The notes below the pieces were generated by a model, which did not search any database, had not been told where the DNA came from, and worked only from the letters and a program-made list of their open reading frames with translations. From Alphaproteobacteria bacterium (GTDB lineage Bacteria > Pseudomonadota > Alphaproteobacteria > UBA828), in the NCBI GenBank assembly GCA_965221125.1, contig CBDCRW010000007.1, positions 576,001-640,000 of the forward strand: a stretch of DNA of 64,000 bases, in the 5' to 3' direction. Made by a program: the position numbers and the translations under genes. Shown in pieces: positions 12,702 through 42,744 of the stretch (its first letter is position 1; each line of letters begins with the position of its first letter).

Positions 12702-12735
12702 GGAGCGCGTCCGACATGCACGGACGCGCGACAGG
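12702..12735. repeat. left part of a 146-bp multi-hairpin repeat (copy 1), split by the transposon
   Basis: GGAGCGCGTCCG-ACATGCA-CGGACGCGC-GACAGG matches 39043-39076 except in the loop. Confidence 0.9.
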
Positions 12736-12881
12736 TGTTGTTTTCCGGTCTAGCCGGATAGAAGCACGGGTTTTTTTCTCACTTTGATTGGTTGGTGGAT
12801 TTCCCGGGATGGTGGCCGAGTGCGGGAAGGACGCTGCCTGCGGCATTTTTTTGATCCTCAGCAGAATCCTCATTGCTGTTG

Positions 12882-13015
12882 AAGCTGTGGAGCGGTGGGC
12901 GCGAGATCGGCGAGTGTGGTCAGGCGGTGGGCAAGCGCCAGCTTGTCCACGGGCTGTCCACACGGTCCGCAGGACGCCGATCGGTCCGCAGGACGCGTCC
13001 ACGGCTCCACAGCTT
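12882..13015. repeat. nested long imperfect palindrome with DnaA-box-like TCCAC(A/G) units in the transposon left end
   Basis: Arms 12882-12903/12994-13015 (20/22) and 12914-12936/12941-12963 (19/23); 15-bp direct repeat CGGTCCGCAGGACGC at 12963 and 12982. Confidence 0.8.
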
Positions 13016-13104
13016 GGCGGCGGCGGGGAGCGTCCGTAATCTTGGCCTCTCACTGAACGACAAAGAGAGGCCCGGGGGACGGAACTCCCGCCGGGCCAGG
13101 GCCG

Positions 13105-13740
13105 GTGCAGCTTCGCTACGAAACGGGGCTCACCAGCGAGGAATACGTTAAGACCGAGGCGTGGCGCGACGCAAGGCTTGAGCGCTGCCCGAATCACCCG
13201 CACGGCGGATGTTCTGTGGCAAGCCACGGCACCTACGAGCGGAAGACCCCGCCCGGCGCAAGGGTTCCTCGCTGGTATTGCCGTGAGAGCCATACGACCA
13301 TCGGCCTGCTGGCCGACTGTCTGGCGGCGCGGCTGCCGGGCACGCTCGATGCGCTGGAAGCGGTTGTTGTCGTGGCGGAGGAGGCCGGCAGCCTGGAGGA
13401 GGCAGCGGACGAGGTGCGCTGCCCCGAGGACGAGGACGCCATCGAGCTTCCCGGCGCCGTGCGTTGGATCCGCCGCAGGCTGAAGCTTGTGCACGACGCG
13501 CTTGTGCGCGTCATCGGCCTGATCCCCGACCTGCTCGCGGGCTGCGCGCCCACCATGAGCGCGGTGCGCGAGCGTCTGAAGAGCGACAGCGCGTTGATGG
13601 AACTGCGCGGCCTGGTCGCCGGGCAGCTCCGGACGCTACCCGCGCCTCTGGGCTTCCAACCCCACGGCATCGACGTGGGGAATCGCAAACCGCAGTTCCA
13701 ACAACGGGCGGGGCCGGACCCGCCGCCGGAGAGTTCGTAG
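13105..13740 (+). CDS. transposon accessory protein with putative Zn-binding Cys/His motifs (DUF6431-like)
   Basis: CPNH..GGC..HGTYER..RWYC..SHTTIGLLADC; first gene of the element; family assignment from memory, not searched. Confidence 0.6.
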   Translation: MQLRYETGLTSEEYVKTEAWRDARLERCPNHPHGGCSVASHGTYERKTPPGARVPRWYCRESHTTIGLLADCLAARLPGTLDALEAVVVVAEEAGSLEEAADEVRCPEDEDAIELPGAVRWIRRRLKLVHDALVRVIGLIPDLLAGCAPTMSAVRERLKSDSALMELRGLVAGQLRTLPAPLGFQPHGIDVGNRKPQFQQRAGPDPPPESS

Positions 13741-13785
13741 CGTGACGATCCCGGGGCCAGGGAGTCCCTGAACGAGGATCGCACC

Positions 13786-15114
13786 ATGAACAGCTCAGAC
13801 GACGACCTTCGCCAACAGATCGCGCTCTTCCGATACGACGTCATCGCCGATCTGGTGCATCTGCCCGTGGGTGCACCGGGTGCCGGCGCGATGATGCGCG
13901 CCAAAGCCGAGAAGACCTACACGATCCCCGGAACCACCAGGACCCGGGTCGCCGCCGAGACCATGCGGCGCTGGATCAAGGACTACCGCTACGGCGGCTT
14001 CGACGCGCTCTACCCCAAGCCCCGCACCGACCGGGGGAAGCCCCGGCGGCTGCCGCCCGAGGTCGCCGAGCGCCTCATCGCGCTGAAGACCGAGAACGAC
14101 GCATTGTCGGTTCGCGCCATCATCCAGAAGGTCAAGGAGGAGGGTATCGACCACCCGCTCGCCTCGTCCACCGTGCACCGCCTCTTCAGCCGCGAGGGCC
14201 TGTTCGACAAGAAGCCGCCCGACGGGGCGGATCGCCGCCGCTTCGCCTTCCGGCATGCCGGCGAGATGTGGATGAGCGACGTCATGCACGGACCCAAGGT
14301 CCGGCACGGCCGAACCCGGCGCAAGACCTACCTGATCGCCTTCATCGACGACGCCACCCGCGTCATCCCGTTCGCCGCCTTCGCCATGGCGGAGAACACT
14401 GCGGCGTTCCTGCCGGTGTTCAAGGACGCGCTGATCCGGCGCGGCCTCCCGGCCCGCTTGTACGTCGACAACGGAAGCGCCTACCGCTCCCGTCATCTCT
14501 CCCTGGTCTGCGCCAGGCTCGGCGTTGCGTTGATTCACGCAAGGGCGTTCCAGCCAGCGGGAAAGGGTAAGATCGAGCGCTTCTTCCGCACCCTCCGGGC
14601 CGGCTGGCTCCGCCACCTCGGCGATGACGTCGACAGCCTGGAGGCGCTCAACCGCAGCCTCTGGGCCTGGATCGAGGGGGAGTATCACAACAGCCCGCAT
14701 CGTGGCCTCGACGAGGGGCGCACCCCGCTTGAGCAGTGGGCGCTGGCCTCGGCCGGCGTGCGCTATCCCGACGCCACCATGGACCTCGACGATCTGTTCC
14801 TCTTCGAGGCCAGGCGCCGTGTCTACAAGGACCGCACCGTTAGTCTGAACGGCCGCGTCTACGAGGTCGACGCCCTCCTGGTGGGTCAGAACGTCATCCT
14901 GCGCTACGACCCGGCCGCGCCGCCCTCGCGCCCTCTCGACGTGGTCCATGACGGCAAGCCGGCCGGCAAGGCCAGCCCTCTCGACGCCTACGCCAATACC
15001 GCCGTCAGGCGCACCTACCCGGCCAGGGAGATCGAGGCCGAAGATCCGGCGCCCGAGCCTCCGCCCTCGCCGCTGGCCATGCGCAACCTCAAGGACAAGA
15101 AGGAGGACGAGTGA
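13786..15114 (+). CDS. DDE transposase/integrase (rve core, N-terminal HTHs, Mu-transposase-like C terminus)
   Basis: WMSDVMHG, IAFIDDATR, LYVDNGSAY, KGKIERFFRT; RRVYKDRTVSLNGRVYEV. Confidence 0.93.
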   Translation: MNSSDDDLRQQIALFRYDVIADLVHLPVGAPGAGAMMRAKAEKTYTIPGTTRTRVAAETMRRWIKDYRYGGFDALYPKPRTDRGKPRRLPPEVAERLIALKTENDALSVRAIIQKVKEEGIDHPLASSTVHRLFSREGLFDKKPPDGADRRRFAFRHAGEMWMSDVMHGPKVRHGRTRRKTYLIAFIDDATRVIPFAAFAMAENTAAFLPVFKDALIRRGLPARLYVDNGSAYRSRHLSLVCARLGVALIHARAFQPAGKGKIERFFRTLRAGWLRHLGDDVDSLEALNRSLWAWIEGEYHNSPHRGLDEGRTPLEQWALASAGVRYPDATMDLDDLFLFEARRRVYKDRTVSLNGRVYEVDALLVGQNVILRYDPAAPPSRPLDVVHDGKPAGKASPLDAYANTAVRRTYPAREIEAEDPAPEPPPSPLAMRNLKDKKEDE

Positions 15115-15914
15115 TGTACCTGCGCCACTTCGCCTTCACCCGCCTGCCCTTCGAGACCCCGGCAGAGACCGACGAGCTGTTCGAGTCCAACGCGCGCCGC
15201 GAGGCCGAGGCCAGGCTCGGCCACCTCATCGACCTGCGCGGCATCGGCCTGCTCACCGGCGAGGTGGGCTCCGGCAAGACCACCGTGTGCCGGCATCTGA
15301 CCGCGCAGCTTCATCCAGGCCTCTACCGGGTCCACTACGTCTCGCTGACCACGGGCAACGTGCTCGACATGTACAAGGCGATCGCGTGGGAGATCGGCCT
15401 GCCCATCGAGCGCTCCCGCGCCTCGGCCTATCAGGCCATCCGAAACGAGATCTCCCGCCTCGTCACCGAGGCCAAGCAGCTGCCGGTCCTCGTCATCGAC
15501 GAGGCCCATCATCTGCGCAACGACGTCCTTGAGGACCTGCGCCTGCTCACCAACTTCGCCATGGATGCAGAGCAGCGCCTGTGCCTCGTCCTCGTCGGTC
15601 TGACCGAGCTCAGGCGCCGCCTGGCCATGGCCATGCACGAATCCCTCAGCCAGCGCCTCGTCGTCCGCCACCACCTGAGCGGTCTCGACCGCGACGAGGT
15701 CGACGCTTACATCAAGCACCGCCTCAGGCTCGCGGGATGCGAACTGCCGCTGTTCGAAGAGCCCGCCGTCGAGGCCCTGTTCCAGGGCGCGCGCGGCCTG
15801 CCGCGCCAGATCAACCGCATCGCCCACTACGCGCTCTCCGCCGCCGCTCTCGACGAGGCGAGGACCGTCAGTGCCGACCACCTGCAGCACGCGCTCGAGG
15901 AACTGCGGCCATGA
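15111..15914 (+). CDS. ExeA/TnsC-like AAA+ transposition helper ATPase
   Basis: Walker A GEVGSGKT, Walker B LVIDEAH, LVLVG..EL, GLPRQIN; coupled to the transposase. Confidence 0.9.
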   Translation: MMYLRHFAFTRLPFETPAETDELFESNARREAEARLGHLIDLRGIGLLTGEVGSGKTTVCRHLTAQLHPGLYRVHYVSLTTGNVLDMYKAIAWEIGLPIERSRASAYQAIRNEISRLVTEAKQLPVLVIDEAHHLRNDVLEDLRLLTNFAMDAEQRLCLVLVGLTELRRRLAMAMHESLSQRLVVRHHLSGLDRDEVDAYIKHRLRLAGCELPLFEEPAVEALFQGARGLPRQINRIAHYALSAAALDEARTVSADHLQHALEELRP

Positions 15915-16951
15915 CCGGCTTCCCGACCCGCGCCCCGATCGAGCTGGAGGAGCGGCCGCGCGAGCAGCAATGGCTGGTGGACACGCTATGGGGCGAGCAG
16001 GCCGTCGGCATCGTCGGCGGCGAGCCGAAGTGCGGCAAGTCCATCCTGGCGCTGGACCTCGCGGTCGCAGTCGCCGCCGGCGTCCCATGCCTGCGGCACT
16101 TCGCCCCGGCCCGGCCTGGCCCGGTCCTGCTGTTCGCCGCAGAAGACGCCGGCCACCTCGTGCGCAAGCGCCTGCAGGGGATCGCCCGCGCCGCAGGCGC
16201 CCGCTTCGAGACCCTCGACATCGCCGTCATCGACGTGCCCACACTGCGCCTCGACCATCTCGACGACCGCCGCCGCCTGCAGCAGACCGTGGAGCGCATC
16301 GCACCGCGCCTCGTGGTCCTCGACCCCCTGGTCCGCCTGCACGGCGTGGACGAGAACACGGTTGCGGACGTCGCCCCGATCCTCGGCTTCCTGCGCGACC
16401 TGCAACGCCGCTTCGAGACCGCCGTCCTCCTCGTCCACCACGCCCGCAAGAGCGGGGCCACGAGGCCGGGGCAGGCCCTGCGGGGCAGCAGTGAGCTGCA
16501 CGCCTGGGGGGACTCGAACCTCTACCTGCGCCGCCGGGACCGGCAGACCCTCATGACCGTCGAGCATCGCGCCGCACGCGGTCTCGACGACATCGAGATC
16601 GAGCTCAAGGAAGACGGAGAGGAGCCCTCCTTCCGGCTGCGCCAGCCGCCCACGGCCGGCGGCGGGGCGCCTCAGCCCGAAACACCCGAATGCCGCGTTC
16701 TCAAGGCGCTCGCCGACGCCGGGGCGCCGCTCTCGCAACGCCAGATCCGGGAACGCGCCGCGACCCGGCACAAGACCGTCGGCGTAATCTTGCAAAAGCT
16801 CGTCCAGGAGGGTCGCGTCGCGCGCAACGCCGAGGGCGGCTACAGCGTCGTCGCAGGCGCAGCGGACAAGCGGGCGGCGGCCGCCGCCGCCAACGGCAGC
16901 AGTCGGCCGCAGGCCCCGCGGTTCCCGGAGCCCGGTTCCGCCAACGCCTAG
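15911..16951 (+). CDS. AAA_25 / RepA-like (RecA-fold, SF4-helicase-like) ATPase with C-terminal winged helix
   Basis: GGEPKCGKS, LFAAED, LVVLDP, VLLVHHARK, LRGSSEL; C-terminal LSQRQIRERAATRHKTVGVILQKLVQEG; ATGA overlap with the upstream ATPase. Confidence 0.82.
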   Translation: MTGFPTRAPIELEERPREQQWLVDTLWGEQAVGIVGGEPKCGKSILALDLAVAVAAGVPCLRHFAPARPGPVLLFAAEDAGHLVRKRLQGIARAAGARFETLDIAVIDVPTLRLDHLDDRRRLQQTVERIAPRLVVLDPLVRLHGVDENTVADVAPILGFLRDLQRRFETAVLLVHHARKSGATRPGQALRGSSELHAWGDSNLYLRRRDRQTLMTVEHRAARGLDDIEIELKEDGEEPSFRLRQPPTAGGGAPQPETPECRVLKALADAGAPLSQRQIRERAATRHKTVGVILQKLVQEGRVARNAEGGYSVVAGAADKRAAAAAANGSSRPQAPRFPEPGSANA

Positions 16952-17282
16952 GGGTTCGAGCCGGAACCGCCGTCGGGAACCACCCTTCCCCAACGGTCCG
17001 GAAGGCGCTGCGCCTCCACCGGGATACTACGTCAGGTGAGCGGCCAGTCCGTGGCCGGAAGCTTGCTTCAGGCCATGGCAGCACTTCGTCGTGTGGACGG
17101 TGGCGAGTCACCCGAAGGGCCGAAGCGAAGCGCAGGAGCGGCGCAGCCGCTTGACGCGCCGACGGCCGCGCGACACCTCGTCAGCTCTCCTCAAGCACCA
17201 GTCCAAACCTCAATCAGACAGCGACCCCGGACCGCCCGCAGAGACCATGAGCTCCTACGCTTCGATCCGGAAAAGACCGAGC

Positions 17283-17356
17283 AATCTGGGAAATCAGGGC
17301 AGCGATCACGTCAAATAATCTGGGAGATTCGGCGTCAAATAACGTGCGAAACAACA
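17283..17356. repeat. repeated putative transposase-binding sites at the transposon right end
   Basis: CGTCAAATAA at 17309 and 17333; AATCTGGGA(A/G)AT at 17283 and 17317. Confidence 0.65.
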
Positions 17357-17473
17357 ACAGGCCGCGACCGCGGCCCGCCGCGAATGCGGCGCGCCCGCGC
17401 AGGCGTTGGCCGCAGGCCAACTGCCGTGAGCGACAAAGAATCAGAGCGTTTCCGTGAAAAACGGAAACGCTCT
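17357..17473. repeat. right part of the 146-bp multi-hairpin repeat (copy 1)
   Basis: Colinear with 39072-39188; ends in hairpin AGAGCGTTTCCGT-GAAAA-ACGGAAACGCTCT, which overlaps the fixK stop codon. Confidence 0.9.
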
Positions 17474-18173
17474 AAGGCCCCTCGTCCGTCGCTGCCTCGA
17501 GGCGGCGTCGGTCGCGGATGACGACGCCGGAAAACGGCCGCAGGACGTCGATGACGCCGTCTCGCGCCAGTTGGGCGAGGGCCCGGCTCACCGTCTCCGA
17601 AGCCAGCCCGAGATAGTCGCCGATTTCCAGCTGGCTCATGGGTAGCGGGACTGTCTGGCGGCCGTCGTTGTCCGGCGCACCGCAGCGCTGCGCGCATTCC
17701 AGCAGGAAGCAGGCGATTCGCTCCCGCGCCGTCTTGCGCCCGAGCCACAACAGCCGCTCCTGAGTGGCGGCGACCTCTCGATCGAGGGCCACGAGCAGGT
17801 CTTCGTGCAGCGTCGGCGATTGCCTGGAGAGTTCCCCCACGCGCGTGCGGGGGACCGAGCAGACGCTGGCCCGGTCGAGGGCTTCGGCGCCGTAGGCGTA
17901 GTGCTCGCCGACGGTGAGCCCCACAAGGTCGCCCGGAAAGAAGAACGCGATGATCTGCCGCCGTCCGTCCTTGGTCGCCTTGTAGCCGGCAATGGTTCCG
18001 CTGAGCACGCGGTGGAAGCGGTCGGCGGAATCACCCTCGAGAACCAGCGATTCGTGGGGCGCCAGATGCCTGATGACGCCGATGGCGTCGAGCCGGTCGA
18101 AGACCGCCTGCGGCCTTTCGACGCGCACCCGATCGGTCAGTGGATGTGTGGCGGCAACCCTCATTGTGGGCAT
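17472..18173 (-). CDS. fixK: Crp/Fnr-family regulator, FixK-like (no N-terminal Fe-S cysteines)
   Basis: DGRRQIIAFFFPGD, LGRKTARERIA, EIGDYLGLASETVSR HTH; downstream of fixLJ. Confidence 0.8.
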   Translation of the reverse strand: MPTMRVAATHPLTDRVRVERPQAVFDRLDAIGVIRHLAPHESLVLEGDSADRFHRVLSGTIAGYKATKDGRRQIIAFFFPGDLVGLTVGEHYAYGAEALDRASVCSVPRTRVGELSRQSPTLHEDLLVALDREVAATQERLLWLGRKTARERIACFLLECAQRCGAPDNDGRQTVPLPMSQLEIGDYLGLASETVSRALAQLARDGVIDVLRPFSGVVIRDRRRLEAATDEGP

Positions 18174-30704: not shown

Positions 30705-30781
30705 GAAACGTCTGCGGTTCAATCGGATCGTCTCGTATACGACGATTTCCGACCCTGCCGGATCACTGCGGTCCGACGAAA

Positions 30782-30888
30782 CCCACCTCCCCCTGTCCCC
30801 CTCCTCCCAGGAGGAGGGGGAACGAATGCGGTGCCGCCCCTTCTCCCTCTCCTCCCCTCGGGGGAGGAGAGGGCCGGGGTGAGGTGGG
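30782..30888. repeat. REP-like composite palindrome between convergent genes
   Basis: Hairpins at 30796-30821 and 30845-30873 (CCCTCTCCTCCCC/GGGGAGGAGAGGG), enclosed by CCCACCTC/GAGGTGGG. Confidence 0.75.
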
Positions 30889-30969
30889 GGATTCTTTTCG
30901 GCGCTGCGGCGCGCGAAGACGCGACCGCGCCCCAACCGGATACGATTCAATCTGCTCGGACCGTCCACG

Positions 30970-39042: not shown

Positions 39043-39188
39043 GGAGCGCGTCCGCCTTCGACGGACGCGCGACAGGCCGCGAGAGCGGCCCGCCGCGCAT
39101 GCGGCGCGCCCGCGCAGGCGCCGGCTGAAAGCCGGCTGCCGTGAGCGAAAAATTCGAAGAGCGTTTCCGTGCAAAACGGAAACGCTCT
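39043..39188. repeat. intact 146-bp multi-hairpin repeat (copy 2)
   Basis: Ungapped 125/146 match to the rejoined copy 1 (12702-12735 + 17362-17473). Confidence 0.92.

Positions 39189-39270: not shown

Positions 39271-42744
<3,474 letters not shown>

Follow-up and report, generated by a model that had tools for sequence, protein, structure and literature searches.

The DNA analyzed here (the window, a stretch of 64,000 nucleotides from contig CBDCRW010000007.1) comes from an alphaproteobacterial assembly of 4.58 Mb in seven contigs, with a G+C content of 69% and a completeness of 92%. The window carries two copies of a 146-bp repeat. Copy 2 lies uninterrupted at 39043–39188 on the plus strand and has the canonical 146-bp form. 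It ends 82 bp upstream of the ATG of dnaE, the 5′ part of which occupies 39271–40770 of the same strand; PHP and DNA_pol3_alpha domains confirmed the identity of this gene, which a preliminary description had named at the same distance. Copy 1, also on the plus strand, is split into a 5′ part comprising hairpin 1 and the junction (12702–12735) and a 3′ part comprising hairpins 2 to 5 (17362–17473). Between them lies a 4,621-bp transposon (12736–17356, plus strand) that is not part of the repeat. The final bases of copy 1 and the adjacent TA constitute the TAG stop codon of a minus-strand ORF (17472–18173), whose cNMP_binding, HTH_Crp_2 and Crp domains identify it as a regulator of the Crp/Fnr family (FixK-like). 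The overlap of copy 1 with a fixK stop codon, as described before, was thereby confirmed.

When joined by script, the two parts of copy 1 gave 146 nt that aligned to copy 2 without gaps and with 21 mismatches, exactly as previously counted by hand. The same count had placed 17 mismatches in loops or the linker and the remaining four in two compensatory pairs. The compensation stands, but the numbers do not: 15 of the 21 mismatches fall in loops or the linker and six in paired columns, where they form three compensatory pairs, all in hairpin 4 (79/93, 80/92 and 84/88). The third of these had been counted as loop.

Five hairpins make up the plus strand of copy 2. The outer arm of hairpin 1 (39044–39070) is the left terminal inverted repeat GAGCGCGTCCG, and its inner arm is the inverse of that sequence. 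Hairpins 2 and 3 (39075–39106) are twin 6-bp G+C stems with 4-nt loops, and these stems are almost invariant across copies and genomes. Hairpin 4 (39107–39147) is a long irregular arm whose inner 7-bp helix (39120–39136) is hypervariable yet paired. It is followed by a variable, A-rich linker (39148–39157), in which GANTC, the CcrM methylation motif of Alphaproteobacteria, can stand at a fixed place, model position 111. Of 73 copies, 26 contain it there, and each of the four bases is found in its middle position; the motif is absent from copy 2. The outer arm of hairpin 5 (39158–39188) is the right terminal inverted repeat (reverse complement GAGCGTTTCCG), and it resembles the end of a 1,047-bp IS630-family element.

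This layout, which agrees with the five hairpins of the preliminary description, is the minimum free energy fold of copy 2 and was also predicted by RNAalifold from 86 copies. As plus-strand RNA, copy 2 folds with −92.8 kcal/mol (z = −6.6; none of 200 shuffles folded as well). The minus strand as RNA gave z = −6.5, and the two strands as DNA gave z = −7.5 and −7.4. Since both strands fold strongly as RNA and as DNA, the fold alone cannot tell which strand or which nucleic acid is relevant.

The transposon that splits copy 1 has the ends TGTTGTTT.../...AAACAACA and is flanked by a 5-bp target duplication (ACAGG; 12731–12735 and 17357–17361), not one of 2 bp. About 20 copies with 100% identity make up approximately 2% of the genome. 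They have TGT...ACA ends, and perfect 5-bp target duplications surround 15 of the 20. The copy in the window encodes proteins with rve and Mu-transposase-C domains (13786–15114), an AAA_22/TniB-like ATPase (15111–15914) and a protein with AAA_25 and MarR-like domains (15581–16951). This element, of Tn7/Tn5053/Mu-like type, has spread here in a very recent burst. Targeting of the 146-bp repeat by this transposon was rejected because only one of the 20 copies lies in such a repeat. Two copies in the present genome (C4:671960–676580 and C4:716887–721507) carry swapped duplications, CGGGG/CCCTC and CCCTC/CGGGG, which points to an inversion of the segment of about 40 kb between them by recombination. 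Three copies are interrupted by about 1.45 kb (C7:276232–277686, C6:194951–196405 and C5:758403–759852), probably by another insertion sequence.

The repeat belongs to a large family. A blastn search of the genome returned 73 matches of at least 100 bp, and nhmmer with a profile built from 43 copies found 116 matches at E < 0.001. Of these, 73 are near full length, that is, they extend from model position 6 or lower through position 138 or higher. Lengths of 143–149 bp prevail among the 73 (46 copies); three measure 150–165 bp, 16 measure 166–185 bp, two exceed 185 bp and six are shorter. The long forms contain a branch of about 30 nt in the hairpin 4 loop, an extra hairpin of about 27 nt between hairpins 3 and 4, or both. 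Truncated copies are present in the genome as well. Full-length matches also occurred in 18 of 20 other genomes of the genus, and weaker matches in 6 of 20 genomes outside it, so that the additional copies which the preliminary description proposed to look for exist both in this genome and in its relatives. A pattern scan of public genomes yielded 38 members among at least 42 loci listed, all of them in assemblies named Rhodospirillales bacterium or Alphaproteobacteria bacterium. The four other loci among those listed, in Kangsaoukella, Prosthecomicrobium, Reyranella and one further assembly, were discarded as chance matches to the 23-nt pattern only. Our literature search turned up no description of this repeat among the papers listed.

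Copies occur in both orientations, mostly in intergenic positions and at the 3′ ends of genes. The 73 near-full-length copies lie between convergent (27), tandem (36) or divergent (10) genes. Additionally, four solitary 29-bp palindromes outside the full copies (one at C2:156934–156962 and three elsewhere) each consist of one end repeat and its inverse, and one of the four is flanked by TA on both sides; they represent minimal forms related to hairpins 1 and 5. The genome also contains another dispersed repeat, about 235 bp long: locus L122 (60–290) matches about ten places in the genome at 72–83% identity, one of them in the window (30742–30960, equal to C7:606742–606960).

The ends of the repeat are imperfect inverted repeats, as stated before, with GAGCGCGTCCG and the reverse complement GAGCGTTTCCG alike at 9 of 11 nt. 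With their flanks, most copies read cTA-GAGCG...CGCTC-TAg. A flanking TA was found on the left of 32, on the right of 40 and on both sides of 13 of the 73 copies, in a genome in which TA accounts for 1.2% of dinucleotides. The next commonest flanking dinucleotides, TG and CA, are each one transition away from TA. Copy 2 has TA on neither flank.

Comparison with related genomes revealed insertion polymorphism. Thirty elements with 1.5-kb flanks were taken from the two closest genomes, which represent sister species, and the flanks were mapped onto the present genome (G000). Fifteen sites were empty, with the flanks adjacent, and three were occupied; the other 12 were not assessable (only one flank matched, the flanks fell on separate contigs, the site held other sequence, or nothing matched), so that 15 of 18 assessable sites were empty. 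Inspection of the junctions at L101, L094, L113 and L107 by eye showed a single TA at the empty site, compared to TA...TA or a one-transition variant of it at the filled site. Several other empty sites, likewise judged by eye, had TG or CA instead of TA. Among 21 genomes of the genus, a single one, that of the present species, has the element upstream of dnaE, and G007 offers the syntenic empty site. TA flanks, inverted-repeat ends and empty sites together are the marks of a cut-and-paste, TA-duplicating element with IS630/Tc1-mariner chemistry.

Three further pairs of loci deserve mention. A candidate shared site (L099 and C4:405451) was rejected as non-orthologous: it consists of two independent insertions 17 bp apart and in opposite orientation. 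At L111:1497–1609 and C5:148892–149005 of G000, G007 and G000 share an insertion site, with an identical pair of neighboring genes, that holds a truncated copy without hairpin 5. The copy has one unusual variant of hairpin 1 in both genomes but lies in opposite orientation, so that this orthologous pair represents an element inverted in place. The flanks of L121 (G007) map to different contigs of G000 (C6:81672 and C5:538453), each next to or inside a copy of the repeat (C6:81680–81816 and C5:538331–538488), which suggests a rearrangement via recombination between copies.

We then consider the possible source of mobility. A domain search for DDE_3 (PF13358) found no IS630-family transposase in the present genome, which is 92% complete, and blastn found no trace of the 1,047-bp IS there. 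PF13358 is present in 16 of the 20 congeneric genomes. Elements of 1,046–1,047 bp were checked at four loci, L124 and L140 (both G009), L127 (G012) and L141 (G013), and all eight ends are flanked by cTA (cTA...TAg), as in the repeat. The 1,047-bp IS was confirmed in 3 of 21 genomes only, none of them the present one; G009 has 22 near-identical transposase matches. Its ends start with GAGC(A/G)TATCCGTTTTAG and, counted by eye, agree with the hairpin 5 end of the repeat at 13–14 of the outer 15 nt and 19–21 of the outer 25 nt. The IS end holds a small inverted repeat that is extended into hairpin 5 in the short element. G007 and G001 contain a relative of 1,050 bp whose ends begin with GAGCGCG, as in hairpin 1. 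The two overlapping ORFs of the IS correspond to positions 2–116 and 118–297 of the 299-position NCBIfam model of IS630 transposases; because they jointly span the model, they probably encode one transposase by frameshifting. Judged by the similarity of the ends, this transposase may be the one that mobilized the short element.

Our proposal is that the repeat represents a non-autonomous, IS630/Tc1-mariner-type MITE, a reading to which we give a probability of about 80%. Inverted ends, TA duplications, empty sites and the IS630 element of the genus bear out one half of the earlier suggestion of a MITE/REP-like family. In all features open to testing in silico, the repeat agrees with the class of IS630-type MITEs, and its hairpins are unusually strictly kept. 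Each end is an 11-nt inverted repeat folded back as a hairpin (1 and 5), and the core consists of the twin invariant hairpins 2 and 3, the long variable arm 4 and the A-rich linker. In the proposed model, an IS630-family DDE transposase, now apparently gone from this genome and present in congeneric ones, would move the element in trans. Going by the known chemistry of the family, the enzyme would excise the element and paste it into TA, preferably within CTAG, thereby duplicating the TA. Such a preference of IS630 for TA within CTAG was reportedly observed by Tenzen and Ohtsubo in 1991.

TA target duplication and cut-and-paste transposition are described for IS630/Tc1-mariner elements and ISY100 (PMC2170065). 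The 1,047-bp elements of the genus resemble these in their cTA...TAg flanks and their IS630-family transposase, whereas the present repeat has no coding capacity and cannot move alone. Its closest counterpart is RUP, a 107-bp repeat with about 100 copies in a Firmicute, which has inverted ends like those of IS630-Spn1, inserts at TA and is thought to be mobilized by that IS, according to the relevant section of PMC2229807. Both are short, non-coding repeats of about 100 copies with IS630-like ends and TA insertion, and the same two arguments apply to both. They differ in that the section on RUP in PMC2229807 reports no structure or function motif, whereas the ends of the present MITE are hairpins and its core holds three more, covarying hairpins; further, the matching IS of the present MITE resides in sister genomes and not in the same genome. 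The usual bacterial MITE, as outlined in PMC2229807, has two ends that pair into one long hairpin. The present repeat, with five local hairpins and optional modules, comes closer in this respect to CIR, the multi-arm repeats known from Caulobacter and further Alphaproteobacteria, which the same outline presents as about 110 bp long, with separate arms, a linker and an exposed GANTC methylation site. By description, the multi-arm fold and the linker GANTC recall CIR; only about a third of the present copies have the motif.

The MITE reading also accounts for the association with stop codons. Based on a rough home-made ORF caller (3,190 genes), the stop codon of a predicted ORF overlaps the element end in 39 of the 73 copies, at the hairpin 5 end 22 times and at the hairpin 1 end 18 times. 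TAG makes up 33 of the 40 overlapping stops, compared to 33% (1,044 of 3,190) of all predicted stops; the latter share, obtained with this rough caller, is itself high for a genome with 69% G+C. Outside the elements, the share of sites located in stop codons is only 2.3% for TA and 20% for CTAG. Because the element begins with G, TAG would be re-created whenever it inserts into the TA of such a codon, be it TAG or TAA. TA is rare at 69% G+C; insertions within genes would be lost, and those in stop codons would be harmless and pile up. The overlap of copy 1 with the fixK-like stop codon is explained in the same way, by the accumulation of harmless insertions.

The pairing of the stems requires separate consideration. 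Our alignment of canonical copies (143–149 bp) comprises 86 sequences, 79 of them distinct: 46 of the 73 copies from the present genome and 40 of the 49 from other genomes. Both sides have changed in 24 of 53 pairs, compared to 11.2 ± 1.7 in shuffled alignments (0 of 500 reached 24), and in 132 cells, compared to 36.8 in shuffles; controls with slid partners gave 6–14 pairs and 12–24 cells. RNAalifold independently recovered the same hairpins from the 86 copies, with 19 of 43 pairs covarying. The inner helix of hairpin 4 has 99.5% paired cells and six covarying pairs out of seven. Eight of 12 pairs covary in hairpin 1 (five of nine core pairs and all three pairs of the outer extension), and likewise eight of 12 in hairpin 5. 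None of the 12 pairs of hairpins 2 and 3 covaries, and 99.2–99.8% of their cells are paired. Substitutions are distributed unevenly: among 115 distinct copies, 5.1% of stem letters deviate from the consensus, compared to 24.1% in loops and 25.2% in ends and linker, so that stems are about five times less variable than loops. Hairpins 2 and 3 deviate at only 0.8–0.9% and the inner part of hairpin 4 at 9.4%. The 323 non-consensus pair cells divide into 118 changed on both sides, 74 G:T and 131 broken.

The preliminary description took such a pattern as selection on a folded structure. Covariation was confirmed, both in the excess of doubly changed pairs and between orthologous copies. Selection is plausible but unproven, as hairpin-templated mutation gives the same pattern. 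Among 64 copies of the present genome with few gaps, no pair is 97% identical or more, and the median identity to the nearest neighbor is 91%, which indicates that the copies are old. Two truly orthologous pairs, L104 (G007) with C7:256268 of the present genome and L096 (G007) with L122 (G020), show two compensatory double changes each in addition to loop changes. As pairing has been kept after insertion in a genome without the transposase, selection for transposability alone is not enough.

For the MITE, we lean towards a cause at the DNA level in hairpins 1, 4 and 5, and we consider such a cause for the pairing of the stems in general to have slightly less than an even chance. Template switching within hairpins, as described in PMC8794818 and PMC7202029, creates and maintains perfect stems. 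During replication, a change in one arm would be transferred to the opposite arm, and pairing after insertion may have been kept mainly in this manner. Hairpin 1 contains multi-base variants that perfect the palindrome in both directions (AGA..TCT, ATC..GAT and AGC..GCT, compared to the unpaired majority AGA..GAC), as templated correction predicts. Templated correction alone does not explain the invariance of hairpins 2 and 3 and of the box before the linker, for which we presume a further, sequence-specific constraint. Additionally, an excess of G:T over A:C mismatches in the stems (74 to 41, P = 0.003) would not be expected of a strand-symmetric DNA process, and selection at the host level would also produce old copies with stems five times less variable than loops.

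That the host selects for a function of the transcript or of the DNA, and that this keeps the stems paired, is a possible cause to which we give roughly one chance in three. One form of this idea, that the MITE is kept because its hairpin bundle forms the 3′ untranslated end of the upstream gene and there protects or terminates the mRNA or serves as a processing site, so that selection on the RNA fold leads to compensation, appears somewhat unlikely to us. It would fit the old copies with well-kept stems, the double changes between orthologs and the location of 59 of the 73 copies no more than 300 bp downstream of one or more genes. Host selection on a fold would also be in keeping with the G:T excess and with the invariant sequence of hairpins 2 and 3 and of the pre-linker box. 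These 59 are, however, oriented in the sense (26) and antisense (16) direction or lie downstream of genes on both sides (17), and stop codons are overlapped at both ends (22 and 18). The G:T excess is concentrated in sense copies, in which the plus strand is the sense of the incoming gene (23:10, compared to 9:8 in antisense copies), but this contrast is not significant and would be mimicked by a transcription-linked mutation bias. On the minus strand of copy 2, hairpin 5 followed by a T-run scores as terminator-like; in most copies, however, the T-run lies 4–6 nt off the stem, and we rejected a terminator of this kind because the orientation of the elements to the upstream genes does not favor that end. 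The 131 broken pair cells and the existence of truncated copies also speak against strict maintenance by the host. In three metatranscriptome runs and one DNA run, examined as assembled contigs, RNA contigs covered the neighboring gene and ended before the element, and contigs of the DNA run piled up on the element as on a repeat; such assembled contigs are uninformative on transcription of the element. The model for a MITE with an RNA role is the Correia/NEMIS family of Neisseria, in which, according to PMC2229807, stem-loops of the transcript affect neighboring mRNAs through RNase III. The comparison is one by description, and the two ends of those elements are described there as pairing into one long hairpin, in contrast to the five local hairpins found here.

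An extended version, in which the core of the MITE was co-opted by the host as a portable 3′-end module, with the twin hairpins and the pre-linker box as the site of a host factor, the covarying hairpins as sense RNA structure and GANTC tying some copies to CcrM, is in our view unlikely. A candidate IHF-like site in the linker, judged by eye, would fit only a few copies.

It is still less probable that no constraint has acted after insertion, with the covariation having pre-existed among many active source elements that needed their hairpins for transposition and of which the copies are snapshots. Most sites are indeed species-specific, and hairpin 4 variants are grouped. The present genome has at least eight paired variants, among them GCTGGCC in 15 copies and GCCGGTC in eight, and only 1 of its 46 canonical copies keeps the form that accounts for 16 of the 33 distinct copies found elsewhere in other genomes; the sister genomes have mostly one form. 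Against this, none of the 64 copies has a partner of 97% identity or more, so that nearly one source per copy would be needed. The same hairpin 4 variants occur on both types of neighboring segment, and the compensatory changes between orthologous copies arose in place.

The alternative offered in the preliminary description, an unannotated structured ncRNA, found no support. A family of free-standing ncRNA genes would account for the strong fold and the covariation, and yet about 100 copies exist in both orientations, many of them on stop codons and at sites that are not conserved between species (1 of 21 genomes at dnaE). Comparison with Rfam, suggested at the time, matched no known family: at the gathering score, the only match in the window was a tRNA and none fell on the repeat, and at E ≤ 0.1 no family was found either, the best sub-threshold values (E = 0.12–0.21) being at chance level. 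A consensus scan found no promoter-like site around copy 2. We regard this reading as very improbable.

The other half of the MITE/REP-like suggestion, a REP/BIME-like element spread by a RAYT (an IS200/IS605-type tyrosine transposase) that recognizes the hairpins as single-stranded DNA, is already close to refuted and has hardly any chance of being right. REP/BIME are abundant intergenic palindromes in mosaic arrangement (PMC2817692); they make no target duplication and have a conserved tetranucleotide next to a single palindrome. The conserved palindromic stems, the variable loops and the mostly intergenic location and position at gene 3′ ends recall them, as does a resemblance in Rfam to naRNA4, which is derived from REP, although at 20.3 bits (threshold 59.5) it is weak and non-significant. 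However, the search for the RAYT/Y1 transposase domain PF01797, a gene whose presence had been put forward as a check, was negative in all 21 genomes of the genus including the present one and positive in 6 of 14 control genomes, and TA duplications with paired terminal inverted repeats fit a DDE transposase.

The analysis names an abundant, unannotated repeat of an uncultured, apparently sponge-associated alphaproteobacterial genus and gives a mechanism for it. It aids annotation, as roughly every second copy defines a neighboring gene's stop codon, and it aids assembly and the interpretation of rearrangements, as copies of the element mark at least one breakpoint between species. Three regimes meet in a single element whose copies are old and no longer mobile here: hairpins that stay constant, hairpins whose changes come only in pairs, and loops that vary freely. 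The family thereby constitutes a natural data set for the question of whether compensatory changes in hairpins stem from selection on the fold or from template switching during replication. If the MITE core were indeed a module co-opted by the host, dozens of genes would share a mobile, structured 3′ untranslated region placed exactly on the stop codon.
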